Assembly (NCBI GenBank): GCA_903884815.1
Contig: CAISGE010000065.1
Span: forward strand, 1-63,962
DNA length: 63,962 nt
Reading direction: 5' to 3'
DNA from: Candidatus Omnitrophota bacterium
GTDB lineage: Bacteria; Omnitrophota; Omnitrophia; Omnitrophales; Aquincolibacteriaceae
How positions within the stretch are numbered: the stretch's first letter is position 1; every line of letters begins with the position of its first letter. Below the pieces are notes generated by a model, which made no database searches, was not told the DNA's origin, and saw only the letters and a program-made list of their open reading frames with translations. The position numbers and the translations under genes are program-made. Shown here piece by piece: positions 3,849 to 41,751 of this stretch.

Positions 3849-3872
3849 CGCTTCCCCCGAGGGATAATTATA

Positions 3873-4253: not shown

Positions 4254-4298
4254 TCACCTCAAGCAAGAATTAAATTGTCAGGGCCTGCGACAGGATTC

Positions 4299-4327: not shown

Positions 4328-4337
4328 GGCACGAGGA

Positions 4338-5689: not shown

Positions 5690-6403
5690 TTAACGGACGT
5701 GAAGTATTTTATGGAGCTGGATCCCGACACGAATGTTCGGGGTCCATTTCGCTCCGGTTCGTTGTAATGTCCCGAGAAACCGCATGAGCGCGGGTCCCGG
5801 GATGCCATGCTTGCCGCGGCTCATCGGCTGTAAAAAAACAGGCGTTGCGGGGGCTACGGCCGCAACCATTCGCAAATGTTTTCCATACTCCGTGAGTTCG
5901 ATCCGTGGCGAGACCACGATCTTGATATAAGTTTCCCTACCTTTTGTGAGCCTGAGAAATCTCCGGTGCTCTTCCAGATAATCCGCCTGACGCGTAACGC
6001 TCGGCAACTTCAGATCCATGGCAATAATATCACAGTCCTTGAGAACCTTCGAGAAGCTCTTCCAGAGGATGCCGCTTGTTTCTAGGAGAATGCGATGGCG
6101 CATTTTCTTTAGCGCGGGACAAAGCAATTTCAGAAAATCAACGTGAAGAAGCGGTTCTCCTCCGGTGAGGCAAACACAGGCATGAGGACCGTGCGTCTTT
6201 TCAAGTTTTTCGAGCATCCGAAGAACATCGGGAAGCGACAGGGTCCGACCGATCTTACCCGCCTCGTCACAATAGTCGCATTTCATGTGGCAGGCTTCGA
6301 ATCGGATGAAGATATGGCGCTCGCCCATCCGCGGCCCCTCTCCCTGGATCGAGGAGAAAATTTCAGTGATGCGCGCGCTGACGGGCGCCTTCCGGAAGGT
6401 CAT
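5690..6403 (-). CDS. queE: 7-carboxy-7-deazaguanine synthase (radical SAM)
   Basis: [34 protein letters not shown] is the QueE-type CX14CX2C radical SAM cluster motif. ATGA overlap with queC. Confidence 0.88.
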
Positions 6404-20277: not shown

Positions 20278-23200
20278 TTACGCGGCGACTTCGGTCTGGC
20301 GGGTCGCCATCAGCGCATCCAAGATACGCCGTATCGCCTCGTTGGCCAGGTAGCTGCCGATAGGATAGAAGCCTTCGGGCTTTGGTATACTCGCGTACTG
20401 GAGCATCACGTTATCAAATTGGGTTTTGCCGACCCCCAAGGCATATTGCACGAGCCATGACTCCCGCCCAAGGTCCGCATCCGTCAGTATATCGGCTTCT
20501 TTCACCACGAAGACCATAAAGCCTTGCGACTTGAGAATACCGAGCAACTTCTCCAAGTTCGATCCAGCAGGGATGTCTTGAGCAAGGACTTCGAATGAAA
20601 CGTGCTCCGTCCGTCCAGCTTCGGCCAGCTTCTTAAACTCAGGCATTTCCTTAGCAAGCGCCGTTTCATCGAGAGGCTTCCTGCCGGGCTGATCCCCAAG
20701 CCGTTTAGCCGCGCCGGCAACCACGTAGCGCTCAACGTTGATCCTATTAAGCATCGCCTCGATCCCGACACCGGCAGGGATCATGGCTGTGGCCGTGAGT
20801 TGCGCAAAATGTTCCAGGTCGCTGCGCAGACTTTCATCACGGGTATTAATATCGCCCCGCGCCGCGGCAAGCATGGCAGTCCACGATTCCCTCAAAAGAC
20901 TCTCGTCCATCACTTCTACCATGATGGAGAGCGCCTGCATTTCCGCGTCAAGCCGACGACTTTCGGCAAGGATGCCGCGATTCACTTCTGCCTGAACTCC
21001 GTGAATCGCTTCATGGATCACGAAGTCTTTCAATTGAGAAGGCGTCATGCGCTCGACCACTTCGGAATTGAGCACGATCTCACGCGCGCCACCGGGCAAC
21101 TCTCTCTCAAAGCCGCTCTTGCCTTTCAGCAGTGGCTCCTGTTTGACCGTGAACACCTTAATAGGCAACGTGTTGATCGCCTTGATCAGCAGTTTTGGAT
21201 CAATGCGGTCAAGCTGGCCTGGCGTCAGTCTGCCCACCGCCTCGACCGCCAGACCTTTCCAGGCATTCACTTTCGCCGTAGCTGGATCCGCCACTTTGTC
21301 CGAAGGCTTCAAATCGTGGAGTTCCGAGCGTTTTTCATCTGCGGGCACGGTTTCTTCCTCCGCGACAGACGGTTCGGCCTCTTCCTCGATCATTGCCTCG
21401 GGTTTGACTTCCGGGAGCGCGTCCGGGGCTAGATCCGTGACAAGATCCATCATGACGTCTGCCATCTCATTTAGTTCATTGAGGTTGGTAGATTCAAACC
21501 CGCGCAAGTGGGCGTAATAGCCGGTAAAAATATTCGTCACGACTTCGATCTGATTTCCGGAGGATTTGTCGGCCTCAAACTGACCTGTCTGGGTATTGAA
21601 TCGGCGAATATGGTAAAAATCGCCATTGCTATTCTCGGCTATTTCTCCCTTATGAGACTCATCCTGCGCTCCCGACGTCAATCCATCGATCAGCACGCCC
21701 TTCTCACCTACTACATTTGCAATCGCTCCTTTATAGCGCCCCGTGCGATCAACCGGCGCATCGATGTAATGCTCCACGTTCCTGGAAGGCATCGTCCCTT
21801 CCGCCATCGATGTAACCTCTTTATAGGTAACCGCACCTGTGGCGGCATCCACTGATATTTCCTCGACGGAAGACCCGCGACCGTAATCGTCCTTTGTTTT
21901 TTCGGTCTGGTTCTGGCGATCGGCGGAGTAGATGCGCTCGACACCCGACAGGATCTTTCGTAAGGCCTTGTTGAATGCGCGGTCCTGTTCCGCGTGAAGG
22001 ATCCCAAGCCCCACTTCCTCTCCGGTCGTGATAATCAGGCGTATCTCGTTGGTATGCCCCTCTGCGACCAGTTTTCGGATTGTGTTCAGGATAATCGCCA
22101 GGCCGGACCGGTTATCAGCACCAAGGGCCGAACTCGGGTCCTTGGCGCGGACATTCCCGAAAGAATCGATCGTGGCCGCGAGATCGTCCGCAACTTCGGT
22201 ACGCACGTCGATGTGTCCCAGGAAACCGATCGGTTTTCCGGCGGTGGCGGGATCCTTGGGGGGAATGGTCAAAAACAAACCTTTGCCCGGTACTTGTTCG
22301 AATTTGAATTGATTCGAAGAAAGACCCTCGGCCGCCAAAAGTTTGTTGATTATTTCTCTCATCTGGTCAAGAGCCTTCGCTTCATCCCGGACAGAGACTT
22401 GCTTACCGTCCAGAAGTTGGCTGAGGATCGATTGTACGGAGCCCTTATCATCATCTTCAATCAGGGGTTGCGGCTGATAGTTAGCATCCAGATTGAGCGC
22501 CTTATAGGCCGCGGCGCGCAGCGCATCCAGTGAATTATCCACGACAGCATTCGGAGCATTAGCTGTAAGAAAATTGAGCAGCCGCTGATAACCGTCGCCC
22601 GTATTTTCTCTCAGAACGCGTTCTATGAGGCGGGCTTTGGCGCGCGTAAGCTCGTCCGCTGTCATTTGTTGATCGCCCGGTTTTGCGGCTTCCGATTTCA
22701 AAAGCTCGTCGATAAGTTTCGTGGATTCCTCGGTCACTTTACCGGCAACAGTGGTTCCGTTAGGCATCAATTCGTCTTTAAGAGCTTCAAGGATCACTTG
22801 TGCGGTCAACTCTCTGCTATTCTTGGCCGCGTCCATACGCTGCAACTGCTCGGGTGTCAACGCATCCAACAGGACGAGGTCCGAGGCGTTCGTGATATAT
22901 TTCCCGAACCGGACCGCCTGAGGTCCATGAAGTTGATAGAGCCGGACGAAGGAGCGGAACGAGGCCTTCATGATATCCGGATTGAAATTGTGGCCGCGGG
23001 CGTAGCTTTCGAGCTTCCTGTCGATGCCTTCCCAATTGTATGGATGTCCATGCTCACGATCCTCGAGCTGTTCTACGACCTGCCCGAAGAAGTTAAAAAC
23101 TTCTTCCATCATGATCATACCGCTGGAATCGTTCCGGGAATAAAGGTAAGGGCGCGGGTGCGTGACGTGTTTGTATTCATGCTGGGGCGACTGCTTCCAC

Positions 23201-26200
23201 CAGTAATCGGCTACCAGAACAATGCCGGTCGACGTGATCCAGTTCGGGCGGCCCTTGGCGTCTCTCGCGCTCTTGGCCTCGTGGCTTACCACCGCTTCGG
23301 CACCGGTCGACTGCACCCAGTTGTTCTTCATGAAATCATAATATTCGCCGAGCTCTTCGACGATATCTTCGGCTACGTTAAAGACGGGCACGCCCAAGTT
23401 CGTATAGCCGTGCTGTTCCATCCAGCGATCTTGTCTTCGCTGCTCTGTCTCCCCCGGCATTCCGGGAAAGTTCGACGCGGCGGGGATGTCCATCGACTCC
23501 CCGAGACGTGAGGTCCCTTCGCCTGTGTTGAACTTATCGAAATTCACCACACCGTAGTAGATCTTTCCATCCTTCAAATGCTTTTCGATGAGCTCGACGA
23601 ATTTAGAGCGTCGCGCGGGTTCGATCTGGAGACGGTGACTGCCGTGCTCATTATTCTCCATGCTGAACACGAAATACTCGGCCATCGCGCCGTAATCCCC
23701 CCGTTTCGCGGCATCCCGCAGGAATTCCCCGAGGTTCTGCGCCCCAGAAAGATGCCGAGCCGTGTTGAGGAGATCAAGCGCGGAAAGCTCCCTGGCGATG
23801 GGCACGGTAAAGTCCACCATCGTTGACTCACCTTTAGCATCGATCTGTTTTGCCTGCAGCTTCTTTTTTGTCGCGACATCGATGAAAAGGACATATGCGT
23901 CTTGATAGGTCTGGAGGTCTTTAAACGTATCCGTAGTTTTTGCGAGCGCCGATTTATACACGGCGGCTTTCTCTGTTGAAATGCCGGCTTTCTTCGCCAG
24001 GGCGACCTTCCCCGGCAGCATCTTCAGGATCTTTTCCATGACAGGCACGATATCCTGAAGGTCCGTCACGCGGTCCTTGGTGCGCTTGCTCTCAGAAAGC
24101 GGGTCAAGAAGCTCAGAAAGCTGAGCTCTCAGCGAATTCAGTTCGTGATCACCCACATCGATGTCCTGAAGGGCTTTCAGGAAATCGTGGATCAATTCAT
24201 AGCTTGAATGCTCCAAAAGCATTTCTCTCGCTTTTTTGTCGAAAGAACGGTCCCTTATCAGCTCGGTGGCAGCTCTCGCGAAATCCACCCCTTGAATAAA
24301 ATGATCATTACCGGCCAACCGTGCCGTTTGCATAAGCCGCAGCATGGTCTGGAAACGCTCCGAGGGGGTCATGGCGGCGAGGAAATCCGCCCGCGCTTTT
24401 GAATTGGCGGTCTTGAGTTCCGCCGCGAAGGCCAGTTTTTGTTCATTAATGATGGAGATCAATGCGTCGTCAGTGCCAGGAGTGAGTTTACTCAGAATAT
24501 GATCCAGAATGCTGATGTCATCGACGGGAACGATTCCGGCATTGCGGGTGCTGATCATCGCGTCCATGATCGCCATGAACTGGGCGCCGAGGCTTTCGCT
24601 TTGCTTGCGAGCCTTCAAATAGGCGGGCAACAGGGCCCGTGATGCCGCGAACTCGGTTGAATACGCGGAGATCCTTAGCCAGTTCTCGAGCAATTCTTTC
24701 TTGTCCTGAGCCATCGTACTCTTAGCCGGATCAAAATTCGTGAGCTCCGCCAGCGTAAAAACCTTTCCGTCCAATTTGATCCCGTCCGGGGTCATCCGCG
24801 TGGCGCCGCCGGCCAACATGATCTTGCGCCCGTCCGCCGTCTGAACCGGGACGAAGCTCTTACCGCTGGGCAGTCGGGCATAGAGCACCGGTCCCGCATC
24901 GCGCGTATGTTGATTCACGTTATCAAAGAGAAGGACGTTCTGGACGACGCCTTTCTCCAGGTTAATGTCGGCAAAGCCGCCCTCATGGTTTTCAGCACCG
25001 CTCGAGATCTGAATGACCTGATTGCCTGACGCATCCCCGATGAATTCGACGGAGAGCGCAGAAACCATGCTATGCCGTTGGAACTCCATCGGGCGTCCGT
25101 ATTCATCCACAAGTCCGTTCATGACCACGCGGTTGTCTTCCATGGAAGCTGTGACGCCCGGCGCAGCCTCGACGCGAACTTTATCGCCGCCGAAAAATAC
25201 AGCAACGCCCCGGTCTGTCTTAGCGATCCACTCCCCGCCGTGGAATTCGAGCGTTTCGACCGTTTGCCCCTTGAGCTCCACGAGGGGCGCGCCAGTCAAG
25301 CTTTGGATGATATGACCGTTCTTGACGAACCGCCGCCTCAAGGTGTTTTTTACGTCCAGCGCAAGATTTTTCGGGCCCATATCTGAAATCAAAGACAGTC
25401 CGTTAAGGTTGTTGTAGAGATCATCGGAATGTGTAAAAACAATGCCATTTTCCCTCAAGACAGTCAGGAATCCTTTAACCCGGCTTGTAATTCCAAGATT
25501 CAAGCGAACAAGGAGTTCCGCATCTCTGAGTGACTTGAGTTCGAATTGCGACTGATCGCCAAAGGTGATGGGATTGGCCTTGGCGGCAAGCCACAGATTA
25601 GCCGTAGCCTCGGCCGTCTTGAGAGCTTCAGTCCGTTTCCAGTCCGTCTCACGCCACAGATCCATGATCTGGCTCATGCTGAGGCCGTTCTTCTCAGACA
25701 GTTTTTTGATGAATTGAAGCTGAACCAATAAGGTATTGACCTTGGGGACGAAAAGAGAGGTTCCGATGGCGTCCGTGATCTGTTTTTCAACATTGGCAAG
25801 CGCGGCTTTTCCGGAGCGGCGGGCTGCGGCAACCGCTTGGGCGGATTTCCGCAGTTGTTCTGACGACGGCGTGAGCTCGGATGCCAAGGCAAGGACGCGG
25901 CTCATGACTAGAGATACGGGATTTGAGAACTGCCCGGAAGCACCCGCGACTTTGGAGCAGTCCAGCGCGTCATAGAAAGCGCTCGGATCCTGCCCTAGAA
26001 TACCGGCAGCCTGCGTGATGACCGCCTTCAAATTCGTACGCCGTTCGTCTGAGATCGCGCGACGCGTATCCACCCCGGTCGCCAGCATCGAAAGCGCCAG
26101 AGCTTTTTTAAGGGCCCCTCTGAAGACGCCTTCCGACACCTGCTGATACTTTGCGAGCGGCATTTTCCGGAGGACTTGATAGAACGCCAAAGGATCGATC

Positions 26201-29200
26201 ACGCTGCCCCACTGCGCCGTCTCGGCTGCACTGAAACCGGCCCGGGCAAAAACACTATTGTCGATCTGTGACTGTTCGGCAAGTGTCGCAAGTTTTACGA
26301 ACTTTCCGGGCTCAAGTGAGGCCAAAGCGTTCAGAACAGGACCGCTCACGTCCAGATGTTTGACGATCACTTCCCGTCGAAGAGCCTGCTGAGGCCCCGT
26401 CGCTTCAACTTGCGCAGCAAGTTTGGCCAGGGTCTGGACGGTGTCTTCCCGAGGAATAGCGGCCCGGAGCTCCGCAATTTCCTCGTGCGTTAGCCCTGTG
26501 CCGAGCAATTCGTGATAAAGGGTCAGATAGGACTTCCAGTTCTTGAAACCATCCTCGCCCAAGAGAGTTTTCAGCCAACTTGCCTGTGTTTCGAGGTAGG
26601 ACTTCATCTCGTCTTCATAGTTAACGCTGAAGATCGCGAGCCCGCCCTTGAATGTAACATTCAGAAGTGCATTGTTCGTGAGAAGCTCCTTGAGATTGGC
26701 GTCGCGTATCGCGTTGAGCGCGATCTCGATCCCTGCGATCTTGAGTATCCGTTCTCCCGTTTCGGAATTCTTCGTCACGTTGGCCTTGAAAGGCCCGCCG
26801 CTCAATGTCCCAAGGCGGTCACGCCCGGCTTCATCGCGCGTCGCTTGAGCGAGTTCAGCCACAGGTCGGGCAACTTCGCTCGACTGGCGCCCGGCGTCCA
26901 GACCGGCAGGCTTCTCGGCCCCCTGGAGTTGTGGGGCGAATTCCATCGCGAAGCCGAGAGCGATCGCGATCATGGTGTCCGCGCGCTCCTTCACATCCGT
27001 TTTGAAACCGAGATTTCCGAAAAATTGTCCGTCATAATCGCCCCGGAGCTGATTCTCACGGATCGTCGCAAATTCGGCGCCCGCACGTAATTGGACATGA
27101 CCGGCTGTTTCGACCGCGTCTTTCAGAACTTGCTTGACAGACTCGCTCAGATCTTTTCCGGTCCCTTTAAGGAAGGCGTTCAACTGCTCTTTGGCGGTCT
27201 TCGCTTTCGATCCCACAAGCCCTTGCACGGACCTTGGTCCATTCGCGTAATCCTCCCCGCGCTCCATCTCATAGTTCGTCCCGTAATGCCGCATCAATTC
27301 CAAATTGAATTCGTAGAGAATCGCCCGTTCCTTGATGCCCTGGTCCCCCTCAACGAAATTGGCCATCATCATGGCGTCGCGCATCGGGTTGAACATGAGG
27401 GCGAAGTCCATGAGCTGGCCGGTGAGCGACCTCGCCGTAGCGTCCGCTGCTCGGGCGCTGTTCATGGCGTAGCTGAGGAGCATTTGCTCGGCCTGCGACA
27501 GCTTCTTCCAATCCCCTTCATTCTCTTGGAGGCGGTCAAGGATGCCCACGATGTCTTTCGGTGCCGTAGCGTCTTTGGGGCCGTTGTAAAACTTGGAATT
27601 TTTGAGCGAATCCCCATATTTATAGGCTTCACCCGCAGCGGTATCCATCCGAGGTTGGAAGAAATCCCGCCATGCCGCGATCGCCTTGAAATCAAGACCT
27701 CCCAACAGGCTTTCCAGGAACTCCGTGTTGAGATAGATCCGTATCTCCGCGTCGAAGCGGTCGTGCGACTTACCCCCAGCCTTCAGATTGCCATTCTCAT
27801 CTCTATCCGCGAACTTCTTCGCGGTCTCGTCCTTGAGCACCGTCGTGAAGCCCTCCGAGTCAACGTTGCTGCTAGATTCAGCCTTTGCGAGATAATCGGT
27901 GAACGTCGTGGCCGCATCCACGTTCCACGCTCGTTTCGTTGCGTCGCGGTAATCCGCCCAATAGGTCGAATTAAGAATGGTTTCGAGTTCCGATTGCCTT
28001 GCGGATCGCCATCCGGGCTCTCCATTCAAATGAGCCTGAACCAATTCCAGTTCCCGGCTATATTGCGGCCTCCCCAAAGCCGTCAAGATGGCAGAGGCAT
28101 CAGCATTAAGGATCTCGCTCAAGGATCTCGGATCATTATCTAAACCCGTCGCCTCTTTCACCGTCTTCTCAAAAGCCCTCGCCGAGACTTCACCTTTGGC
28201 GTATTCCCTCACCATTGATTCAAAGATCGAATGCATAGAGATCGTCCGGGCAACACGACCCTGGTTTTGCATGAGCATGACGGAGCTGATCTGCGGCGTG
28301 AACGCGGCGTAAAGCATATTGTCCCGTTGATAATTGAAACCGATCAGCGCGTGCTGGGCGGCGAGCACGATCTTTTCCGTGCTTCCCTCGTTGAATTTCT
28401 GTACATTCTTGAGCACGTTATTCTGGCCCTCGGCACTTCCGTCGATAACCATGATGTCTTTTTCTGTCAACCCCAGTTTCAACAGCTCCAACCTTACCAG
28501 CTTGATCACTGTATCGCTCAAGATTCCCGCCAGAACGGATCTCATAGCGTCACCGTGCCCTCTGGCGTCATACAATTCACGGGCAATGAATGCAGCTTGC
28601 TGCTGATCCGATTTACCCGAAGTGTCCCATTGTTTGAGACTAAGGGCCTTGCGAGCTTCTCCGGGAAGTGCGTCCTCCCCGCCCTTTTCCGCAAGCAATT
28701 CGTGAACATAGGCGTCAGCAAAACCGCCTTTTCCGAAGATCACTTCGGTATTCCGTCCCACGATCATCTTCGCCTGCAGCGCGACCTCGGCGACCGTACC
28801 CGACATTCCGTAGGCGGCAGACGCTCCGCCGCCCATGATGAAGAGATCGAACATGCTCGACGCGGTGAGGGTGTTCGTCTTCTCGATGTTTTTCGCGCTA
28901 TTCCGGATAATGTCAAGGCCCAGTCTTTCGTACCGGTTGGTCTCTCCCACTATGGGTCTGATGCTGAGTGCGCTATCGCCCGTCATGTAACTGCCGTCCG
29001 CACCGACCTCGTCCTTGATCCCGAGACCGGCTAGTTCATGGGACAACCCGGCGTCATTGAGTTTGTAGCTGATCGTGATAAGGCCGACCGTGTCCGAAAT
29101 AATCTGGGAATCCTGCTGCTTGCCGTCGGAGCCTTTGGGACGGTACTGGTCGCCGGCACCTCTCCGTATGCCGTTGATAATACCGGCCTCGACATTTTCC

Positions 29201-32200
29201 GTGCGTATCGATTGATATTTCAGGATGGATTCCAGTTCCGACGTATAAAGCGTGAGGTCGCTCAGAGGCCTGATCTGATCCTCCTCATTCTCAATACCCT
29301 GATTTTCCCGTTCGATAATGCTTTCATAACGCTCTTTCAGGGCTGTTTTCCCGGGGCCACGGCTGAAGAATTCCGCAACCTGGTTCGATTTATTCACCAT
29401 CTCGTAGGTCGCGGTTTGAACCCAAATGACGGCCTTATCGCCCTTATTGCGATCGAAATAATCCTTACTTTCGGTAACGATGAGGTGCTGTGTTTCGTCC
29501 GCAGGTGTTACTTTTGTGCCCCTCCGGTCGAAAAGCTCTCCGTTCCGCTCCCAAAGCATAATGCTATTTTGGCCGACATTATGATCATCCACAAAAAGTT
29601 CGTTGGCGGCGCAATAGAGGAAAAATTGCGGCAATTCGACCGCTTTCATGGCATCGCCGCCCAGAATGAAATAGGTCGGGTCCACCACCCGATGGACTTC
29701 GTCCATGACTCGCATCGAACTCTGGAATACCCTCGAGAATTCGCGATAATGCTGAAGGTCCGTGGAGCGGAAATGCGTCATCAGATGCCCCAGAGTGGTG
29801 AAGCTCACGGCGAGCACCCACCTGAACCCATCCGTATCCGTGAAGCCAGCAAGAATTTTAATCAATTCCGCATAAGCTGTGTCCCGTTCCTCCTGCGTCG
29901 CGCCTCGCGTGATCCGCTCGATCAGCTTTTCACCGTTGATGTATCGCATACGGAGATTATTCGCGAGCTTTTCCTCGTTCGTCCGGTTCTCGGCAGCTGA
30001 TTTCGTCGCAGTAGCTTCCGCGACGATGCGTTCGATGCCTTCCTTGCTTTCCGCGATATGGATGTTCGCGCTGAAAACATAATCATAAGCGACCATCAGA
30101 AAGGTTTTGCCGCTTCCGACGGCCGCGTTCAGGAGATTTCCAACAAGCCCTCCCATGAGACCCTTTTGCTGCTCCATTGAAAGCTTGACGCTTTTCTCCG
30201 AAATGATCACCGCGGTGCGAAGCATCTTCTCATGATTTTTCATCCCGCCCAGGCTGGAGAAGAAATCTCTCAAGGAAGGCGCCGTTTCACCTGTCCGTGG
30301 TCCAACATCCCGGAACGTGAAAATACGTGCGTAGCTTTCGAAGCCACCGCCGCCTTGCGCGGCGCAGGCTTTGGCCAGATAAACCTTAAAAAACTCGTGG
30401 TATGTCAGAGTTGGATGCGTTGTTTTTGCGGCATCAAAAGCATTTTCGATTTCTTCAACCGCACCCTGTCGGATATGAGAATCGTTATCCATGTTTTGAA
30501 GGTGGGCAAACAGATCCGCCGAAGGATTGCTGTAAGCATCATTGGCTTGGTTTTCCATATACGCATTATGAGCGGCGATTATTGCCGTTAAAAGGTGCCC
30601 AGTATCGGCTTTGAAATCGAGGGCGTTAAATTCTTTAGTACCGTGGGTGAGAATAAAATGGAAGGCTCCGAAAGCGGCTCTGTCGATTGCCGCGGATTGC
30701 AGTTCAGGCGGAAGACTCGTGAGCCAGTTCTGAACTTCGATTCGCTCAAGCCACGCGTTCACGTCAGCGAGTTTCTGCTTCAACAGGAATTCGACAAGCT
30801 CCGGATGAGAGACGCGGGCTTTAAGGCTTTTCTGGATTTCCGGGGTAATCTCGATCACCGCCTTGCCGTTCTTGATCTCGAGATTCAGATCCGCGGCGAA
30901 ACGCCGGACCTGGGGAGCAAGCTCGAACGCCATGATCTTTAAAACAAGATCTACAACGCCAGCTTGAGCCAGGAGAGCGTCTTTCTTCGCGTCGGGCGAA
31001 TTATCCAAATACTGCTTGGCCAGTTGGGTCGCCACTTCGGATAAAGCCTCGACCGGACTCATGAAGCGCTTGTCTTTCTGCAATTCTTCCGCCTTCTTGA
31101 AAAGTGCGTTAAAGGCGGCCGTAGTTTCGGGAGTGGCATCGTCGCCGTTCATGACGCGCACAAAAACGGCGAGCCGGACATTGGAATTCCAGTCTACCAT
31201 TTTTGCAATCAGGGTCTCGAGCAATGTCCCCTCGTAAGGGGCACTGACCGCCGCGTCACCAAGGATCTTGGAAAAAGTTCCTTTGAGGTCCAATCCTGAG
31301 ACAAGCCGGCAGAAATCATCAGCCGCATCGGCCGTCAGGTCCAGGAACGCCTGCTTTCCTGAGATCGTCACTACGATCCCGGCGACGGGCTCCGCGGCCT
31401 GGGGTGCGAGGCCTTCTTTTTCCGCGACATTCTGGGTCACTTCAATTTTGGAGAATGCATCATAGATCGAGGTGACTAATTTTTTGAAGTCGTCCACTGT
31501 CTGGAGATTCATGCGCCGCGTAACTTCGCCGAGGAACGTGAAACGGCCGATACCGCCTAACTGTTCAATATTGCGGCCGGAATTTGCGAACGCGTTCAGG
31601 AAACCGGCGAACTCATCGCGCGGGATCGCGGTTAGCAGAGCCTCGGCGATCGACCGCATGAATACATCATTAGCTTCGAGGCGGCCTTCCAAACCCCGGA
31701 GCGCGGGGGGGAGCAACCCGCCTATTCTTTGAGCAATGGAAGCCCGCGCTTCCGCGGGTTTCGGTGCGGTCTCCGTCACTTCAACCTTTGTTTCAGTCGC
31801 GAGGGTCTCCGAGGGCGCGGTGGGCGTTTCAGCTTTCTTTTCAGCACTAAAAAATGTGGCGTAGGCGGACGCTCGCTCCTCGTTCGAGGCCCGGAGAAAG
31901 GTCTGGACGCCTGGCTGTATCCAGTTCTCTAGCAATAGAGCCTGGCACGCTTCAGCCATCCTCTTGAAAAGGTTGGTGACATCCTCGGGCGCGAGTTTCC
32001 CACGCAGGAAGATATCCGCCAGTCCCTCCGCGCCCAGCTTTTGTTCCTTCTTGTTAATGTTGAAATTCTCGAGGTTCAGACGCTTGTTCTGTTCGAGGTC
32101 CTTCATCAGGAACTCAAGGCGGGCTTTGTTGACCTGTCTTAATCCATAGATCGTTTGCTGAGTCGATTTTGCAGATTCTTTTAAAACGTCTTGGGCTGTA

Positions 32201-35200
32201 TCCCAGCGACCAGTTTTGACGGCCTCAATAAGTGCATCGCGTTGAGAGACATTTAAGCTTTTGAGGATACGAGGTAATGCAACGTCGAGTATGCCGAAGG
32301 CGTTTTCTATCGGCGGTTTTCCGCCATTGGATGGACTCCAGGCATCCGTTTCTATGGCTTGTTTCAAGGCGGCATCGAAAGCGGCCCTCTTTGCAGGCTC
32401 CAAACCGGCCAGCGTCTGCTCAAGGCCGCGCGCCAGGGCCGCACATTCGGCGGCACCGATATTCACCATGCTACCGAGGCCGTCCGAAGTTCCGAGGAAT
32501 TTCCAGAGCGAGAACTGACCAAGGAGCATCAGTTCCCGTTCTCCCAGAGCATTGGATGTCGGAACTTCAGTCGGGCGGATCGTTCGCAAAAGCGTCAGGG
32601 CTTCATCCTGTTTGCCGCTTTCCACAAATTCAAAGAATTGCGTCCTGTTCTCCAGAGAAAGGTTCAGCACGAGGTTCTGATCGCGAAGTTCCCCGCTGCG
32701 CCACACATCACTGAACGAAGGGCGAAGGTTGCCGCCCGCTTGTGGGACCAGCAGGATCGAGGCCTTTTCAAGAGAGGATCCGAAGGACAGGAATGCGGCT
32801 TTAAAAGAATCGGAGTTACCGCTCAAGTGAGCACCAAACATTCCAGCGAAGAAACCCGGAATGCTCGCCAGATCCTTCAGAATCGCGCCCACGTCCGCAA
32901 TCCCGGGGACGGAGGACCCCGCTTTAGGCGCAGGTTCGGCAACTCCGGCATTGGCCTGGGCCACAAGGGCAATAGATTTTCCGGTCGCGATCACTGTGTT
33001 AAAAAGAATGAGATTGTCGGCATAAGCGAAGGCTGCGCCAAGATAATCAGCCCCTTCCTTGGTTAACAATTTCGTAAAAAGCGTTCTGACCCAAGCAGAC
33101 CCAGAATCAGGAATAATGGCGCGGAACAGTCCGTTCGTAGCCGAGAAACGTCCAAGAAGACCGGCCGAAAAAGTCGGCGCGAAAAGATGCAGTGCCTGCC
33201 CCAGGATAACGTCATGAAGGATGCGGCTCGGTGCCCAGGCGTTCGGGTCCAGGAACTGTTGCTGAAAGACGGAGCGCACATGTCCCAAATACCCTTCGCT
33301 GCGAGATCTCTCATCCAAGAAATGCCAAGAGGGATTAATTTTGTTCAACATGAACTCGAATACCTGGTCAGTATAGAGCGCCGCCATCGCCACGGGAAGC
33401 ATATGGAACGTAATGACGCTTTTGCCGGCGTCGAGAAGGAGAATCTCAAAGGTGCTAACTTTCAGGAGAGCGCTCTGCTGGACGACACGCGCCACGACGC
33501 GCCCCATGGACCCGAGACCGGCAATGCCGTCAAGAGCCAAGCCGTCGGCCGAGAGCATTCTTGCCAGCACGATCCCCCGGACCGGTATCGCTAAGGCAAT
33601 TCCCCGTCCTGCGAGAAGCACGAGAGACCCGATCAGGAACTTTTGCCCCAAATCTTGCCAGAATTGCTTTCCAGACGCGTACCCGTACATCTCCATGCCG
33701 ATTCCGGCTCCGAAAGCGGCCACGTTGAGCATTCCCGATCCGAGGTGGAAGTATTTCCATCCCTGCATTCCGGCGGCATTAAGTTCACCAAGCTTGCCGA
33801 CAGCGTTCAGCTCGACAAGTGAAGGGCCGAACGCGAACATAAAACGGGCGCCAAAGGCAAAACCCGCAATCGCAATGCCGTGAATGAGAAGTTGCGAGTC
33901 TCCTCCGAATGCCATCCGGATTCCTCCGGCAGCGGCCATCCCGAGTCCGATGGTTATACCAGCCGTGAGAGTTCCCTGGACAAAGTGCGAAATATTCACG
34001 ATCGTGTAAGCTGTCTTACTGATCTGCGAAAAGCTGTTAACGCCCGTAGCGATTTTCCAAAAAGGCGTCGTGGCTTTGACGACAGCTGCTCCGGTCTCAA
34101 CGGCTTTTGCGCCCGCCGCTACTGCCTCGGTGGTTTTTGCAGCCGCGGCCAATTTGGAGGTCGCCGCTCTCATGGAAAATCCGCTGCAGATCGTGCCGAT
34201 CACAAGTCCGCCCACCTCGATCACGGTCAGCGTTTTATAGGCGAGGTCTGTTTCCTTGAGATCGCCGAAGGTCTGCCAGGCCCACTTGACGGCAGTGGCG
34301 GCAAAACCCGCGGCCGTGCAATACGCACCCGCCGTTACAAGCACCGCCGGCATCGCTTCTACCCACATATAGGCCGTTGCAACGACCATAGGGGTGAGCG
34401 AGGCCGCCATAATGATGGTGCTCGGGCTGTAGAGCCGGGTGATTTCCCAGAAATGGATCTCTACTTCCGTAGAAACGCCAGTGTTAAGATCTGTGGAAGT
34501 CCAGCTGCTGCCGCTGTGGAAGGTCCGTAGATCCGCGCCCAATGCGCCGGAGAGTTCGAGAGAAGGCGTCACAATCCAATGGCTGTAAGTACGAGCATCA
34601 TGGAGGATCTCGTAGGCAAATCCGGTGATAGGTCTACCGTACGAAACGAACAGATTAGGCTGGAACCAAAAATTCAAATGTCCTTTCTCTAAGGCAATCG
34701 CCCCGCGCTGGCTGTTAATCTGATCGATAAACACCGCGTCTGCGAAAGCCATCGAACCGTCCTTCCTCATAAAACCGGTCTCCGAGTTCCAGTCCTTATA
34801 ATCTCCGTAGAATCGCCCAGGTTCGCGAAAATATTGGGTCACATCCTGATTCTCATCATGATTCCATTTATCGCCTAAAAGAGTTTCGCGTTTCGTTGTC
34901 ACAACCATTTCCCAAAAACCGCCTATGGCCCATGCGGGATGATAGCTAAGCGAATCCCTGTGCTCCACGCCTTTATCCGTCCCGTCCTTCCCGTACGAAA
35001 TGGACCTGATGGTGCTTATCCGGCCATCTTTAGTGATGTCGGGCAGGAACTTGTAAGTGACAGTGGCTTCCGAACCATACCCAATGTGTGTCCAAACGCT
35101 TCCCCACTCATACGATCGGGCTTCCAGAGAGGCTGTAACGCCTTTCGAATCCACGACCTCAAACTGGGTCAGGCCGAGGCCTATACGGTATTCCGTCAAT

Positions 35201-41200: not shown

Positions 41201-41751
41201 TGCACGCCCGCGTTAAAGAGCGCGAAAGCGTACCCTACGATGCCAAACGAAAGAGCGGCCTGGGCGACAAAACGGCTGGTCGAAGACGATTCGCCGACCA
41301 CGGTCATTTCCCGGACAGAATTTCCGGTAAATTTGCCGAAGGAAGTCGCGCCTTTCCGGATCTCTTTTTCCGCGAAGACGGCCGTTTTAATGGAACCGCC
41401 GTCGGAGTAACGCAATGTGCCATTAACGTTCACGGCGACGATCGCGGCACCCTTCTCGGAGGCCGCCTGATACATGCATTTCGCGAGAAGCACCGAGCCG
41501 CTAAAGATCGCCTGAGAATAGCTGATCACACCAAGGCCCGCCGCGGCAGAGACAAGAAGTCCGCCGAGCGGATTATCATCATAGCCGACCGCGATCCATT
41601 TCCGGATCTCATTCCCGCCGAAGGCGCTGATCGCGTCATGCCCATTCGACCGGGCTTCGACCCGTTCAAGGAACGAAACCTCGATGACCCTGTCCGCAGA
41701 TATTGCGTAAGCCAGCTTCCCGTTCCCCTTATTGACCGCGACATACTCCAC
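20278..41751 (-). CDS. Giant multi-domain membrane protein, 7,157 aa as an independent ORF; probably the C-terminal half of a single giant gene of at least 14.5 k aa
   Basis: Uninterrupted 21.5-kb ORF. The annotated start is a GTG with no convincing SD, and its frame stays open a further 33 codons upstream of that GTG (back to a TGA at about 41853). Domain content is listed as separate features. Confidence 0.9.
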   Translation of the reverse strand: MEYVAVNKGNGKLAYAISADRVIEVSFLERVEARSNGHDAISAFGGNEIRKWIAVGYDDNPLGGLLVSAAAGLGVISYSQAIFSGSVLLAKCMYQAASEKGAAIVAVNVNGTLRYSDGGSIKTAVFAEKEIRKGATSFGKFTGNSVREMTVVGESSSTSRFVAQAALSFGIVGYAFALFNAGVQVLGCELIQEQSGFLIARDKLTHEVLGGMDIRLTEAVMMKVETPADARKELPALKNPKTGEALEYAHFETVLVSGSGEKLTKLFFNGKEGDYQMVGMTTGDPSSFKSIIFFDFVGGISCRQVASTLSLDLVFFDPSGNRLGAMNIKTFQPVVRGPASAKDFQDEAQKAHDKLENDNQLNSKDISTPEEIAPVEDISKPLKEMAESYSRIAQDTGSELMATVAGMMNDMATEVANKTASYQQMALADAHALPEAEALPLVRNPASSVDPNAPTHFDCNKDAVRVDYTKGTLPEETQAFYFDKNNKIIGWTTGQSNDASSINFFISDGMLLQRGSGIVGGPLGALLVTDLKSGALIAGFDVTAHFAPQAMTWQTVTDKTQRTLTTLKDGKPVVAFTLNKATDVLVGATGAEGKILRIYLNKAEGTDRYSIVGATRGVDPATADLIFYRAGNYLFFSRNGFDSVGALNILDITTGKVLDQYLFQGLRNASENGLCKISAVKSTLTKDQLAAAGTTRTALKGADKGEVFDVRSITLRDGTVIKDDNKTEFGQLMSVLQQAGVAEGITFTKGDVTWFFGSTDLSTLGKSVLVGSGKANGGQFDVMGFGAKVPDGIYTVQNLENRALTSAEFQKAMKDQPALEGMGLTKGNLRSIASFLGPGDVVIDSLNPKDNAQFALILGALGTVGVSQGISFTDSYGFGVSFDKPDLSKLASAQMLTGFGSNAGTYLVLGGGRVIESVNKNGANSTRERFTNPDGSWSFGKELRTFHTGDIAKEGSSWGGQSTRLQILDVSIDNTGLLPTMVQELDGLYAMLTGLRSQFFSNGNGDFAISRFWDAKGTTVIGVQSSQQLPDGSGWRVRTGAYNEKNGLYVETLTPASRQSPSTRALENIFSQTLSLGAGTHIDPVTGAGVFYGKDGTSPVDPTSLFGKSMFASFQVIDSATNLMLFSATYGELEQGPGGAQGKGWTYIATSMNAATGLYAIASGKTKGDTASKEDIARVQAQAKTFAQAAEKRTAEVGGSYIDASGVITMRRQGAQSLEQGASNGVGVIFRDQNGVIVPFDKLPGIGTDVNFQILDSKTNLMLFAATFGKLDFGFGWSISVGSVNEKTGLYASGSIKVPEGKVSAAQVEKLQADVEHISEFAARKETGSRTSVFFKDSDGKETGFDGLAGAGKMRLDDLRDMSFQILDTRTGAMLLSAMYAQKVAPPGAASSGSWILTSTALDAKKGVAVVSSLTMNRDNVRAEDIAKVQTQGQEISKSSELVKTGGVVFKDASGNVVSPMDIINAGKDSAFQIVDLKTNIMVCSYGFGKLADGTSTWILTSKAVNGAAGVAIVGTLAVKTEKFAAEDVAKVQANTRAVAFGSMRREDAPKADGFGRVFLTDGSMNENGTLNEVGLSALVRDAKEMSFQFADTLTNAVLLTATYGKLNDGAPGVVPENGWTLTSTSYNEKTGLYTVGHLQVKGDTFGAEKIALVQTNTTTLSAAAVRTETGKVMFMISGQAVGFTELEGISKDMVFQILDPVANVLLFSAEYGQLSPARDGKEATFGWLLKGGSLNPETGLYTVSQTKVPGETVSKEDVAAAQRTDIRTASKNAAQTFPTDHWKDTATGRTYPVVQGHLRGEDGKPISDVEVLKGLLASLRADDHAAMKDQNISALAIDALLPIRSEWVSNEFVGAIFMIDSSRPVSHGDLSIRFTAKDGTPITSESVLRALGENLDLEHGGHNYCEIFGAIPGNISASVRGSMELLSGLGATRFQGGYLPTNLDWGSLAGVEFEATVTFYGESYWSTGKFNTVGSIVLEKVKSAAQAEFQAMDFKQATKFKGEMIKVVDQYNNKEHPDGVRPTVANIDCKWDFSETFKVNGIEKTVTGFLLQSEAFFNMKPLSGDAGLNALGKGPIAQFQNIISQIDGAETFRCHADGFVEGASFWVQKVYGRELYKSQAGVMVPGTQPERYFKTYEGGDAEYKVGIRLGSDYLKNPFDTKDGKSGYAILSSLMKQFDPDSKLLTEYRIGLGLTQFEVVDSKGVTASLEARSYEWGSVWTHIGYGSEATVTYKFLPDITKDGRISTIRSISYGKDGTDKGVEHRDSLSYHPAWAIGGFWEMVVTTKRETLLGDKWNHDENQDVTQYFREPGRFYGDYKDWNSETGFMRKDGSMAFADAVFIDQINSQRGAIALEKGHLNFWFQPNLFVSYGRPITGFAYEILHDARTYSHWIVTPSLELSGALGADLRTFHSGSSWTSTDLNTGVSTEVEIHFWEITRLYSPSTIIMAASLTPMVVATAYMWVEAMPAVLVTAGAYCTAAGFAATAVKWAWQTFGDLKETDLAYKTLTVIEVGGLVIGTICSGFSMRAATSKLAAAAKTTEAVAAGAKAVETGAAVVKATTPFWKIATGVNSFSQISKTAYTIVNISHFVQGTLTAGITIGLGMAAAGGIRMAFGGDSQLLIHGIAIAGFAFGARFMFAFGPSLVELNAVGKLGELNAAGMQGWKYFHLGSGMLNVAAFGAGIGMEMYGYASGKQFWQDLGQKFLIGSLVLLAGRGIALAIPVRGIVLARMLSADGLALDGIAGLGSMGRVVARVVQQSALLKVSTFEILLLDAGKSVITFHMLPVAMAALYTDQVFEFMLNKINPSWHFLDERSRSEGYLGHVRSVFQQQFLDPNAWAPSRILHDVILGQALHLFAPTFSAGLLGRFSATNGLFRAIIPDSGSAWVRTLFTKLLTKEGADYLGAAFAYADNLILFNTVIATGKSIALVAQANAGVAEPAPKAGSSVPGIADVGAILKDLASIPGFFAGMFGAHLSGNSDSFKAAFLSFGSSLEKASILLVPQAGGNLRPSFSDVWRSGELRDQNLVLNLSLENRTQFFEFVESGKQDEALTLLRTIRPTEVPTSNALGERELMLLGQFSLWKFLGTSDGLGSMVNIGAAECAALARGLEQTLAGLEPAKRAAFDAALKQAIETDAWSPSNGGKPPIENAFGILDVALPRILKSLNVSQRDALIEAVKTGRWDTAQDVLKESAKSTQQTIYGLRQVNKARLEFLMKDLEQNKRLNLENFNINKKEQKLGAEGLADIFLRGKLAPEDVTNLFKRMAEACQALLLENWIQPGVQTFLRASNEERASAYATFFSAEKKAETPTAPSETLATETKVEVTETAPKPAEARASIAQRIGGLLPPALRGLEGRLEANDVFMRSIAEALLTAIPRDEFAGFLNAFANSGRNIEQLGGIGRFTFLGEVTRRMNLQTVDDFKKLVTSIYDAFSKIEVTQNVAEKEGLAPQAAEPVAGIVVTISGKQAFLDLTADAADDFCRLVSGLDLKGTFSKILGDAAVSAPYEGTLLETLIAKMVDWNSNVRLAVFVRVMNGDDATPETTAAFNALFKKAEELQKDKRFMSPVEALSEVATQLAKQYLDNSPDAKKDALLAQAGVVDLVLKIMAFELAPQVRRFAADLNLEIKNGKAVIEITPEIQKSLKARVSHPELVEFLLKQKLADVNAWLERIEVQNWLTSLPPELQSAAIDRAAFGAFHFILTHGTKEFNALDFKADTGHLLTAIIAAHNAYMENQANDAYSNPSADLFAHLQNMDNDSHIRQGAVEEIENAFDAAKTTHPTLTYHEFFKVYLAKACAAQGGGGFESYARIFTFRDVGPRTGETAPSLRDFFSSLGGMKNHEKMLRTAVIISEKSVKLSMEQQKGLMGGLVGNLLNAAVGSGKTFLMVAYDYVFSANIHIAESKEGIERIVAEATATKSAAENRTNEEKLANNLRMRYINGEKLIERITRGATQEERDTAYAELIKILAGFTDTDGFRWVLAVSFTTLGHLMTHFRSTDLQHYREFSRVFQSSMRVMDEVHRVVDPTYFILGGDAMKAVELPQFFLYCAANELFVDDHNVGQNSIMLWERNGELFDRRGTKVTPADETQHLIVTESKDYFDRNKGDKAVIWVQTATYEMVNKSNQVAEFFSRGPGKTALKERYESIIERENQGIENEEDQIRPLSDLTLYTSELESILKYQSIRTENVEAGIINGIRRGAGDQYRPKGSDGKQQDSQIISDTVGLITISYKLNDAGLSHELAGLGIKDEVGADGSYMTGDSALSIRPIVGETNRYERLGLDIIRNSAKNIEKTNTLTASSMFDLFIMGGGASAAYGMSGTVAEVALQAKMIVGRNTEVIFGKGGFADAYVHELLAEKGGEDALPGEARKALSLKQWDTSGKSDQQQAAFIARELYDARGHGDAMRSVLAGILSDTVIKLVRLELLKLGLTEKDIMVIDGSAEGQNNVLKNVQKFNEGSTEKIVLAAQHALIGFNYQRDNMLYAAFTPQISSVMLMQNQGRVARTISMHSIFESMVREYAKGEVSARAFEKTVKEATGLDNDPRSLSEILNADASAILTALGRPQYSRELELVQAHLNGEPGWRSARQSELETILNSTYWADYRDATKRAWNVDAATTFTDYLAKAESSSNVDSEGFTTVLKDETAKKFADRDENGNLKAGGKSHDRFDAEIRIYLNTEFLESLLGGLDFKAIAAWRDFFQPRMDTAAGEAYKYGDSLKNSKFYNGPKDATAPKDIVGILDRLQENEGDWKKLSQAEQMLLSYAMNSARAADATARSLTGQLMDFALMFNPMRDAMMMANFVEGDQGIKERAILYEFNLELMRHYGTNYEMERGEDYANGPRSVQGLVGSKAKTAKEQLNAFLKGTGKDLSESVKQVLKDAVETAGHVQLRAGAEFATIRENQLRGDYDGQFFGNLGFKTDVKERADTMIAIALGFAMEFAPQLQGAEKPAGLDAGRQSSEVARPVAELAQATRDEAGRDRLGTLSGGPFKANVTKNSETGERILKIAGIEIALNAIRDANLKELLTNNALLNVTFKGGLAIFSVNYEDEMKSYLETQASWLKTLLGEDGFKNWKSYLTLYHELLGTGLTHEEIAELRAAIPREDTVQTLAKLAAQVEATGPQQALRREVIVKHLDVSGPVLNALASLEPGKFVKLATLAEQSQIDNSVFARAGFSAAETAQWGSVIDPLAFYQVLRKMPLAKYQQVSEGVFRGALKKALALSMLATGVDTRRAISDERRTNLKAVITQAAGILGQDPSAFYDALDCSKVAGASGQFSNPVSLVMSRVLALASELTPSSEQLRKSAQAVAAARRSGKAALANVEKQITDAIGTSLFVPKVNTLLVQLQFIKKLSEKNGLSMSQIMDLWRETDWKRTEALKTAEATANLWLAAKANPITFGDQSQFELKSLRDAELLVRLNLGITSRVKGFLTVLRENGIVFTHSDDLYNNLNGLSLISDMGPKNLALDVKNTLRRRFVKNGHIIQSLTGAPLVELKGQTVETLEFHGGEWIAKTDRGVAVFFGGDKVRVEAAPGVTASMEDNRVVMNGLVDEYGRPMEFQRHSMVSALSVEFIGDASGNQVIQISSGAENHEGGFADINLEKGVVQNVLLFDNVNQHTRDAGPVLYARLPSGKSFVPVQTADGRKIMLAGGATRMTPDGIKLDGKVFTLAELTNFDPAKSTMAQDKKELLENWLRISAYSTEFAASRALLPAYLKARKQSESLGAQFMAIMDAMISTRNAGIVPVDDISILDHILSKLTPGTDDALISIINEQKLAFAAELKTANSKARADFLAAMTPSERFQTMLRLMQTARLAGNDHFIQGVDFARAATELIRDRSFDKKAREMLLEHSSYELIHDFLKALQDIDVGDHELNSLRAQLSELLDPLSESKRTKDRVTDLQDIVPVMEKILKMLPGKVALAKKAGISTEKAAVYKSALAKTTDTFKDLQTYQDAYVLFIDVATKKKLQAKQIDAKGESTMVDFTVPIARELSALDLLNTARHLSGAQNLGEFLRDAAKRGDYGAMAEYFVFSMENNEHGSHRLQIEPARRSKFVELIEKHLKDGKIYYGVVNFDKFNTGEGTSRLGESMDIPAASNFPGMPGETEQRRQDRWMEQHGYTNLGVPVFNVAEDIVEELGEYYDFMKNNWVQSTGAEAVVSHEAKSARDAKGRPNWITSTGIVLVADYWWKQSPQHEYKHVTHPRPYLYSRNDSSGMIMMEEVFNFFGQVVEQLEDREHGHPYNWEGIDRKLESYARGHNFNPDIMKASFRSFVRLYQLHGPQAVRFGKYITNASDLVLLDALTPEQLQRMDAAKNSRELTAQVILEALKDELMPNGTTVAGKVTEESTKLIDELLKSEAAKPGDQQMTADELTRAKARLIERVLRENTGDGYQRLLNFLTANAPNAVVDNSLDALRAAAYKALNLDANYQPQPLIEDDDKGSVQSILSQLLDGKQVSVRDEAKALDQMREIINKLLAAEGLSSNQFKFEQVPGKGLFLTIPPKDPATAGKPIGFLGHIDVRTEVADDLAATIDSFGNVRAKDPSSALGADNRSGLAIILNTIRKLVAEGHTNEIRLIITTGEEVGLGILHAEQDRAFNKALRKILSGVERIYSADRQNQTEKTKDDYGRGSSVEEISVDAATGAVTYKEVTSMAEGTMPSRNVEHYIDAPVDRTGRYKGAIANVVGEKGVLIDGLTSGAQDESHKGEIAENSNGDFYHIRRFNTQTGQFEADKSSGNQIEVVTNIFTGYYAHLRGFESTNLNELNEMADVMMDLVTDLAPDALPEVKPEAMIEEEAEPSVAEEETVPADEKRSELHDLKPSDKVADPATAKVNAWKGLAVEAVGRLTPGQLDRIDPKLLIKAINTLPIKVFTVKQEPLLKGKSGFERELPGGAREIVLNSEVVERMTPSQLKDFVIHEAIHGVQAEVNRGILAESRRLDAEMQALSIMVEVMDESLLRESWTAMLAAARGDINTRDESLRSDLEHFAQLTATAMIPAGVGIEAMLNRINVERYVVAGAAKRLGDQPGRKPLDETALAKEMPEFKKLAEAGRTEHVSFEVLAQDIPAGSNLEKLLGILKSQGFMVFVVKEADILTDADLGRESWLVQYALGVGKTQFDNVMLQYASIPKPEGFYPIGSYLANEAIRRILDALMATRQTEVAA
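20900..21250 (-). other. Zincin-like HExxH motif region near the C-terminus of the giant protein
   Basis: ...GGAREIVLNSEVVERMTPSQLKDFVIHEAIHGVQAEV... HEAIH is encoded at 21001-21015. The HExxH-x-Q pattern resembles DUF4157-type zincin signatures. Motif-level only. Confidence 0.45.
21490..22260 (-). other. Clan MH (M42/M28/M20-like) metallopeptidase-like domain in giant protein
   Basis: Ordered motifs: GFLGHID (H-I-D at 22207-22215), LGADNRSGLAII (22102-22122), ITTGEEVGLGI (EE at 22015-22020), later ...YYAHLRG. Spacing and order match co-catalytic aminopeptidase ligands. Confidence 0.6.
28240..30200 (-). other. Divergent SecA-like DEAD motor / SF2 ATPase domain in giant protein
   Basis: QQKGLMGGLVGNLLNAAVGSGKTFL (Walker A at 30103-30126; compare SecA QLLGGMVL..IAEMRTGEGKT). 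VMDEVHRVVDPTYFILGG (DEVH at 29692-29703; compare [20 protein letters not shown]). TLTASSMFDLF...AYGMSGTVAE (28795-28809; compare LASITFQNYF..LAGMTGTA). MQNQGRVAR (28246-28269; motif VI QxxGRxxR). Confidence 0.65.
32800..34420 (-). other. Transmembrane-helix cluster 2 (giant protein, downstream ORF)
   Basis: Runs of hydrophobic 18-25 aa segments, roughly 8-12 helices by eye. Examples: IIMAASLTPMVVATAYMWVEAMPAVLVTAGAY (34321-34400), LLIHGIAIAGFAFGARFMFAFGP, FLIGSLVLLAGRGIALAIPV (33541-33600). Confidence 0.7.
36400..38500 (-). repeat. Six tandem protein repeats of about 110-140 aa ('FQILD' repeats) in giant protein
   Basis: Recurring pattern: GV.F.D..G......(S/M)FQ(I/V/F)(L/I/A)D..TN.(M/V)L(F/L)SA.YG.L....GW.L.S...N..TGLY........G......ED(I/V)A.VQ. 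FQ anchors at about 38410, 37995, 37660, 37335, 36990 and 36668. Confidence 0.8.

Follow-up and report, generated by a model that had tools for sequence, protein, structure and literature searches.

What kind of motor is built into a giant bacterial membrane protein, a SecA-type polypeptide translocase or a helicase-type ATPase? The question is raised by a stretch of 63,962 nucleotides (nt) from a Candidatus Omnitrophota bacterium (contig CAISGE010000065.1 of assembly GCA_903884815.1), here called the window, in which two giant open reading frames (ORFs) lie in tandem on the minus strand: ORF A (41729-63895; 7,388 amino acids, aa) and ORF B (20278-41751; 7,157 aa), the latter bearing an ATPase domain. 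An initial annotation, made from the letters of the window, had taken this domain for a divergent SecA-like motor, such domains being described there as a common feature of giant Omnitrophota proteins. This agrees with the literature: divergent SecA_DEAD domains have been described in giant (>30,000 aa) Omnitrophota proteins (West-Roberts et al. 2023; bioRxiv 10.1101/2023.11.21.568195), and the PF07517 cluster of bioRxiv 10.64898/2026.06.07.730766 likewise concerns SecA_DEAD-like domains of giant Omnitrophota proteins. For the domain in ORF B, we arrived at a different assignment. With moderate confidence, we read it as a membrane-tethered cytoplasmic DExH motor of helicase superfamily 2 (SF2), of the ResIII plus Helicase_C type, that belongs to a rare family of giant Omnitrophota proteins and that, by homology, would most likely act on nucleic acid.

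The ATPase domain and its family

The domain and its motifs are arranged as follows, with window coordinates first and residues of ORF B in brackets:

20278 to 41751, minus strand: giant ORF B, ATPase-bearing, GTG start (from the ORF list)
28072 to 30351, minus strand: SF2 ATPase domain comprising N-lobe, insert and C-lobe (3801-4560), delimited by phmmer matches spanning query positions 1-760 and by family alignments
30103 to 30177, minus strand: Q/R-Q element MEQQKGL (3859-3865) and Walker A/motif I AVGSGKT (3877-3883), helicase-type, from hhalign
29656 to 29706, minus strand: Walker B/motif II MDEVHR (4016-4021), DExH type, and strand DPTYFILGG (4024-4032)
28888 to 29655, minus strand: family-specific insert of about 255 aa between motifs II and III (4033-4288), with conserved alignment blocks
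28795 to 28872, minus strand: helix TLTASSMFDLF (4294-4304) and motif III GMSGT (4315-4319), from the family alignment and hhalign
28246 to 28542, minus strand: C-lobe motifs IV-like, V and VI, from the family alignment, Helicase_C matches and hhalign

Overall, the motifs extend from residue 3859 to residue 4502 (window positions 30177 down to 28246), with AVGSGKT at nt 30103-30123, MDEVHR at nt 29689-29706, GMSGT at nt 28795-28809 and motif VI, QNQGRVAR (residues 4495-4502), at nt 28246-28269; the IV-like strand RSVLAG occupies residues 4404-4409 and motif V, VLAAQHALIGFNYQ, residues 4462-4475. As to the layout, the initial annotation was accurate. Its four collinear motifs are present on the minus strand within the 28240-30200 that it had given (core 30177 to 28246), and the gap of about 297 aa that it had noted corresponds to 298 aa from DEVH to GMSGT, or 277 aa from DEVH to TLTASS. 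Motif V, in ORF B LAAQHALIGFNYQ, is indeed degenerate, reading LAAQHALIG in place of LTNQRGLTG in the family consensus LTNQRGLTGxDYQ, and the ATPase lies, as claimed, C-terminal to a transmembrane (TM) cluster, which is a conserved one (residues 2446-2931). In profile-profile alignments (hhalign), the Walker A region was aligned with motif I of HsdR, SNF2 and SecA, and MDEVHR with DE[AC]HR of HsdR and DExH of SNF2, followed by the strand DPTYFILGG, which leads into the insert. Against a single E. coli SecA sequence, hhalign aligned the Walker A region only.

An exhaustive HMMER scan (phmmer) of 1.84 billion representative proteins with the ATPase domain of ORF B as query identified 10 proteins, namely ORF B itself (identical to representative P0001) and nine relatives with E values from 2.5e-70 to 1.7e-11. 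Eight of the nine are themselves giant (4,454-6,210 aa) and the ninth is a 609-aa fragment; complete members, ORF B included, thus have 4.4-7.2 thousand aa. Scanning one genome per GTDB species gave 11 loci, seven of them with records that name Omnitrophota, Omnitrophica or Candidatus Taenariivivens baikalensis and the other four titled 'uncultured bacterium', and a scan of JGI metagenomes gave four loci, two of them new. Every relative with a taxon in its genome record is from the Omnitrophota. A word-indexed search of 5.8 billion proteins, in which giant proteins seem to be under-represented, returned no match for the domain or the alignment, ORF B's own protein included, and ORF B is likewise absent from an exact-sequence gene index.

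The final alignment comprises 22 rows (20 non-redundant), and invariance was judged wherever a row was not truncated. In Walker A (GxGK[TS]), the G, K and [TS] positions are invariant, as are D, E and H of Walker B (DE[VIA]H) and P, G and G of the strand following motif II (22/22 rows in each case), so that the check on catalytic residues proposed in the initial annotation came out in favor of an intact nucleotide-binding site. Motif III (G-x-[ST]-G-T) has invariant G, G and T, with S in 17 rows and T in four at the [ST] position, and Q, R and R of motif VI are invariant in the untruncated rows. The ATPase domain is real and under selection; that of the window is catalytically intact in its motif residues and is presumably active. 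Together with its two nearest relatives (37-39% identity), ORF B makes up a subclade with altered motifs: Ia has changed from LVPS to IAES, IVES or CVES (IAES in ORF B) and V from LTNQRGLTGxDYQ to LAAQ[HY]ALIG[FV][ND]YQ, both altered motifs being conserved within the three members.

Opposite the ATPase region, the plus strand has three ORFs of 267-350 aa:

27091 to 28143, plus strand: ORF antisense to the giant gene
28231 to 29034, plus strand: ORF antisense to the giant gene
29038 to 30000, plus strand: ORF antisense to the giant gene

If these were the true genes, the motifs could be a coding artefact or chance matches in sequence of low information content, a reading to which we assign a negligible probability. 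The overlap speaks for it, but all three ORFs are in the classic antisense shadow frame of the giant gene, where a high GC content at the first codon position mirrors that at the third position of the sense strand, and their sole similarity to related loci is one 15-bit match, to the antisense of the same conserved stretch. The minus-strand protein, on the other hand, is conserved in other genomes with E values down to 1e-70. The plus-strand ORFs of 27091-30000 are almost certainly not genes.

Helicase-type profiles and the comparison with SecA

The kinship of the domain becomes apparent at the level of the family. In Pfam, the family consensus exceeded two gathering thresholds, that of Helicase_C with 29.1 bits (cut-off 23.5) and that of ResIII with 26.3 bits (cut-off 22.5); for T1R_D3-like it reached 24.6 bits, under the 27-bit cut-off of that model. 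Among 10 individual family domains, five matched Helicase_C, four ResIII, three T1R_D3-like and one DEAD, with member P0005 above the Helicase_C cut-off (24.5 bits). The Pfam SecA_DEAD model does not cover the preprotein cross-linking domain (PPXD) that is nested in SecA, and we therefore also scanned 16 constructs lacking the insert, of which 12 matched ResIII (best E 5.6e-6) and six DEAD (best E 6.9e-8). The consensus gave only weak Cas3-helicase matches in NCBIfam and PADLOC, and the family profile gave weak matches to XPB/Rad25, SNF2-like and Cas3 proteins among PDB sequences, plus AAA matches at the P-loop; no SecA was matched there, though PDB holds many SecA chains. The ATPase of ORF B alone had no match in NCBIfam, PADLOC or PDB sequences. 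SecA_DEAD (PF07517), SecA_PP_bind (PF01043) and SecA_SW (PF07516) did not appear in any Pfam scan, at E<=10 for the window domain, the 10 full domains, the 16 excised cores and the consensus, and at cut-offs of 0.01-0.1 for two whole relatives and whole ORF B; given the filters of HMMER, an absent SecA match means only an E value above about 0.1-0.3. The SecA models of NCBIfam were likewise not matched.

For comparison with SF2 control families by hhalign, we drew on IMG/VR for 19 diverse SecA sequences, which share 34-52% identity with E. coli SecA, 75 loci having been found there by a degenerate pattern of motif V, TNMAGRGTDI; loci for 22 type I R subunits (HsdR), eight SNF2 proteins and 15 DEAD-box helicases were found likewise. 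Family identity was checked by signature motifs, the SecA signatures being present in 14-19 of the 19 sequences and the SNF2 motif VI signature in 8/8. The N-lobe gave probabilities of 85.7% with HsdR (P=5.5e-6), 61.7% with DEAD-box, 50.6% with SNF2 and 13.4% with SecA. For motif III plus C-lobe, the values were 83.6% (SNF2), 69.8% (DEAD-box), 35.8% (SecA) and 4.0% (HsdR), and for the insert-excised core 87.9% (HsdR), 83.9% (SNF2; aligned from the Q-like element as far as motif III), 50.5% (DEAD-box) and 11.2% (SecA). SecA was thus the lowest of the four controls for N-lobe, excised core and whole domain and stood above only HsdR for the C-lobe, a ranking to be read with the caveats that the control sets had been collected with short motifs as seeds and that SecA is tightly conserved, which makes its profile less permissive than the broad helicase profiles. 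The same procedure gave 94.4% for HsdR versus SNF2, 94.9% for SNF2 versus DEAD-box and 96.4% for SecA versus DEAD-box, the last value indicating that the method detects SecA kinship where present.

These results do not bear out the claim of the initial annotation that the motifs are closer to SecA than to SF2 enzymes in general. Profile searches return ResIII, Helicase_C, DEAD, T1R_D3-like and Cas3 instead, and hhalign places HsdR, SNF2 and DEAD-box before SecA in three of the four comparisons. The segment TLTASSMFDLF..GMSGT, cited there as SecA-like, does align with SecA TLASITFQNYF..GMTGT, but equally well with SNF2, over its ordinary helix and motif III (the segment before LTGTP). Of the Pfam models that had been proposed for a check, Helicase_C and ResIII pass with the consensus and the SecA models (SecA_DEAD, SecA_PP_bind) give nothing. 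The profile searches assign the region to SF2 families other than SecA, an outcome that the initial annotation itself had named as refuting, and as far as homology can be detected its SecA assignment is refuted. The PPXD-like insertion suggested there is borne out in its position. A large domain sits exactly at the PPXD site, after the strand behind motif II and before the helix ahead of motif III, where canonical SF2 enzymes have a short connector. Its flanks, DPTYFILGG and TLTASSMFDLF, align with TPLIISG and TLASITFQNYF of SecA, and also with the contiguous motif II-to-III segment of SNF2. The insert itself, however, showed no similarity to an alignment of the 19 SecA PPXDs (hhalign P=0.5 over 14 columns, chance level), nor to HsdR, SNF2 or DEAD-box (P>0.1), and its consensus had no match in Pfam. 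Its conserved elements are SEL.SILKA, QYRP (residues 4202-4205) and II[ES]DT (IISDT in ORF B, 4217-4221). By eye, ILKARAIDFRD of the insert resembles ALRAHALFTRD of the SecA PPXD; we rejected this likeness in view of the chance-level profile comparison. XPD and DinG also carry an insertion, the Arch domain, in their first lobe; the present family lacks the Fe-S cysteines of these enzymes.

A SecA-like polypeptide motor, by descent or convergence, whose insert would clamp a polypeptide and which would push or anchor the extracytoplasmic part of ORF B or of its neighbor, has to be weighed at this point. In its favor, the insert is at the position equivalent to the PPXD, and a sub-optimal hhalign path is collinear with SecA over 510 columns (Q, I, II, insert/PPXD, III, V, VI), at a probability of 4%, P about 0.01 and a sum of probabilities of 219; motif III plus C-lobe reached 36-58% against SecA over 112-142 columns. 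It would also fit the placement of the ATPase after the TM cluster in every full-length member that retains the membrane module, the SecA_DEAD-like domains of other giant Omnitrophota proteins, and the genes for type II secretion system (T2SS) proteins E and F in the window and for pseudopilins just beyond its start. Yet the best whole-domain path to SecA is out of register (13%), and the lack of SecA model matches, the PPXD comparison and the rank of SecA among the controls all speak against it, as do a Walker B of the DExH type instead of DEVD, a motif VI reading GRVGRT instead of GRxGRQGD, and the absence of a scaffold- or wing-like region after the ATPase. Taken together, we consider such a motor unlikely, though the strongest of the alternatives to a helicase-type enzyme; that it would thread or export the giant protein is an analogy.

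Structure prediction was of limited help. AlphaFold2 (AF2) with a 10-sequence alignment gave a mean predicted local distance difference test score (pLDDT) of 54.2, beta and alpha elements alternating around the motifs, and values of about 70-87 over domain residues 240-385, within the insert (overall model mean 54); from the single sequence, the pLDDT was 37. A Foldseek search of the pLDDT-54 model against PDB had no match at E<=0.001, SecA appearing at ranks 44-45 with E about 1.1. Given this outcome, the two-lobe fold is deduced from the motifs and the secondary-structure pattern only.

Presumed membrane tether, possible mechanism and substrate

The ATPase is one of four collinear modules common to the family (BLASTP, jackhmmer), located at residues 2575-3011, 3770-4508 (ATPase), 4645-5020 and 5980-6340 of ORF B. 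The features outside the ATPase are:

32959 to 34416, minus strand: cluster of about 8-10 hydrophobic, presumed TM helices, residues 2446-2931 (Kyte-Doolittle scan)
26692 to 27819, minus strand: module 3, helix-rich, about 375 aa, residues ~4645-5020, just after the ATPase and collinear in all full-length relatives
22732 to 23814, minus strand: module 4, residues ~5980-6340, with the HExxH motif HEYKH at residues 6191-6195 (nt 23167-23181)

The TM cluster overlaps module 1 (2575-3011), about 900 aa upstream of the ATPase in ORF B; module 1, whose consensus had no match in Pfam, is collinear in six of eight full-length relatives (BLASTP) and in each case precedes the ATPase by about 900-1,300 aa. 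Module 3 had no Pfam match either and showed no likeness to the scaffold or wing in a comparison with full-length SecA (hhalign P=0.41). In module 4, PRP comes after the HExxH, with a conserved EE some 25 aa further on, and the motif is present in 13 of 14 members, which makes the module a candidate zinc metallopeptidase; it matched neither Pfam nor PDB sequences. Further downstream, residues 6545-6631 (21859-22119, minus strand) have a weak M42/M28 aminopeptidase-like match (E=5.9e-5; 22.7 bits, cut-off 23.2). Member P0006 has a C-terminal GNAT acetyltransferase domain (residues 3916-3995) and P0005 N-terminal TPR repeats; as these members differ outside the four modules, the modules behave as a conserved core with variable additions.

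In the DExH motor that we favor, the upstream TM cluster would tether the domain to the cytoplasmic face of the membrane; the domain is expected to be cytoplasmic because it needs ATP. ATP would be bound and hydrolysed at the interface of the lobes by K3882 of Walker A, D4017 and E4018 of Walker B, and R4499 and R4502 of motif VI, and the ensuing opening and closing of the lobes would move or remodel a polymer, with the insert possibly serving as a domain that binds the substrate or a partner. Since the nearest profile relatives (HsdR, SNF2, Cas3/XPB-like and DEAD-box proteins) all act on nucleic acids, DNA or RNA would be the most probable substrate, an assignment in which our confidence is likewise moderate.

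Several observations weigh against this interpretation. The window protein itself is below every Pfam threshold (its ATPase alone matches only ResIII, E=0.096 and 13 bits, with 13-17 bits for ResIII when the excised construct is included), and its SF2 membership is therefore derived from the family. The hhalign probabilities are all moderate and not decisive, and the predicted structure is poor and gave no significant Foldseek match to a fold of any class. Profile scans found no nuclease, methylase or other DNA/RNA-related domain anywhere in ORF B, and a polypeptide motor like SecA would likewise be expected to be tethered to the membrane and to have its insert at this site. In addition, SF2 enzymes contact nucleic acid through motifs Ia and V, and both have diverged in the subclade of ORF B (IAES for LVPS, LAAQHALIG for LTNQRGLTG), which weakens the nucleic-acid reading for the window protein.

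As motifs Ia and V link hydrolysis to movement of the substrate, their divergence could alternatively mean that the three-member subclade has a pseudo-motor that binds nucleotide and does not translocate, acting as an ATP-dependent switch or scaffold for downstream modules such as the HExxH module. The sub-threshold Pfam scores of the window protein and the absence of a partner nucleic-acid domain would be in line with this. However, Walker A, Walker B, motif III and the Q and Rs of motif VI are intact in the window protein, and conservation of the variant motif V in all three members suggests constraint rather than decay; we regard a pseudo-motor as improbable. We see about the same small chance for a DExH motor that has independently acquired a SecA-like architecture, with a tether and a novel clamp at the PPXD site, and acts on polypeptide. 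If true, such a convergent motor would be the built-in translocation or anchoring engine of a giant surface protein and a second, convergent SF2 protein translocase.

Genomic setting, significance and known systems

The end of ORF A overlaps the beginning of ORF B by 23 nt (41729-41751), and the C-terminus of ORF A (residues 7198-7362) shares 28% identity with the N-terminus of ORF B (residues 44-182). Family hidden Markov models detected no copy of the ATPase or of the other ORF B modules in ORF A, in which the sole confident Pfam domain over 7,388 aa is a NedA-like galactose-binding (F5_F8_type_C_2) domain at about 54809-55045 (minus strand; E=1.9e-11). Among the flanking genes are those for T2SS E and F, radical SAM enzymes, MgtE, Dus and a polysaccharide deacetylase:

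964 to 3848, minus strand: T2SS/type IV pilus-type ATPase (T2SSE plus MshEN) and platform protein (T2SSF)

Beyond the window start, the source contig (ENA ERZ1426827, 72,037 bp) continues with three pseudopilin-like genes (N_methyl) and a Laminin_G_3 protein. This T2SSE/T2SSF/pseudopilin neighborhood fits the reported closeness of giant Omnitrophota genes to T2SS-like loci. A search confined to the window found no canonical secA, secYEG or secDF, and the ten largest flanking ORFs scanned include no restriction-modification genes; the related loci are occupied by the giant gene itself. The ATPase domain had no tblastn match in plasmid and phage collections, and there is thus no sign of an origin from a mobile element or defence island.

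To our knowledge, giant Omnitrophota proteins are almost entirely unannotated, and their export has been ascribed in published work to SecA-like domains within them. That these proteins carry SecA_DEAD-like ATPase domains has been reported before, and SF2 ATPases are among the best-known folds. What is new is a family that is not recognisably SecA, its previously undescribed insert, and the co-occurrence with membrane and HExxH modules. At least one giant Omnitrophota family thus has as its motor a DExH helicase-type ATPase with a new insert, and the label of a 'SecA-like self-export motor' should be applied with caution to the ATPases of giant proteins at large. The family is rare (10 clusters among the 1.84 billion representatives). 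It defines a compact module of about 760 aa in which the catalytic residues (K3882 and E4018) are clear, and knowing its substrate, nucleic acid or polypeptide, would tell the role of the cytoplasmic half of giant proteins.

The published SecA_DEAD-like domains of giant Omnitrophota proteins share with the present family the phylum (as judged from the genomes of the relatives), an ATPase placed after TM segments, the lack of scaffold and wing, and T2SS genes nearby. According to their published description, they match Pfam SecA_DEAD and SecA preprotein-binding profiles, whereas the present family matches neither and scores with ResIII and Helicase_C. With SecA proper, the family shares an SF2 motor, presumably two-lobed, a domain between motifs II and III, a presumed membrane setting, motif III in the form GM[ST]GT after a T-x-[TA]-x-[IS]-[TS]...F helix, and the 'TN' that opens the consensus of motif V. 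It differs in having DE[VIA]H, LTNQRGLTGxDYQ and Q..GRVGRT where SecA has DEVD, TNMAGRGTDI and GRxGRQGD, and it has no helical scaffold, wing domain or C-terminal zinc tail. SNF2 proteins resemble the family in the C-lobe and the excised core (84% in hhalign for both), but DExHxxKN and QxxxRxxRxGQ of SNF2 are replaced by DEVHQCADP and Q..GRVGRT, and the position of the insert is unlike that of SNF2 inserts, which are inter-lobe. From HsdR the family is set apart in that no PD-(D/E)xK or HD nuclease, methylase or specificity partner was found in ORF B, two whole relatives (also negative for nuclease and methylase profiles) and the ten largest flanking ORFs. The common denominator is the ResIII plus Helicase_C core of HsdR, XPB/Rad25 and Cas3, with which the family shares the order and chemistry of the motifs (Q-like, I, Ia, II, III, V and VI, the last as QxxGRxxR), and from whose enzymes it is distinguished by the 255-aa insert after motif II and by its place within a membrane protein of 4-7 thousand aa.

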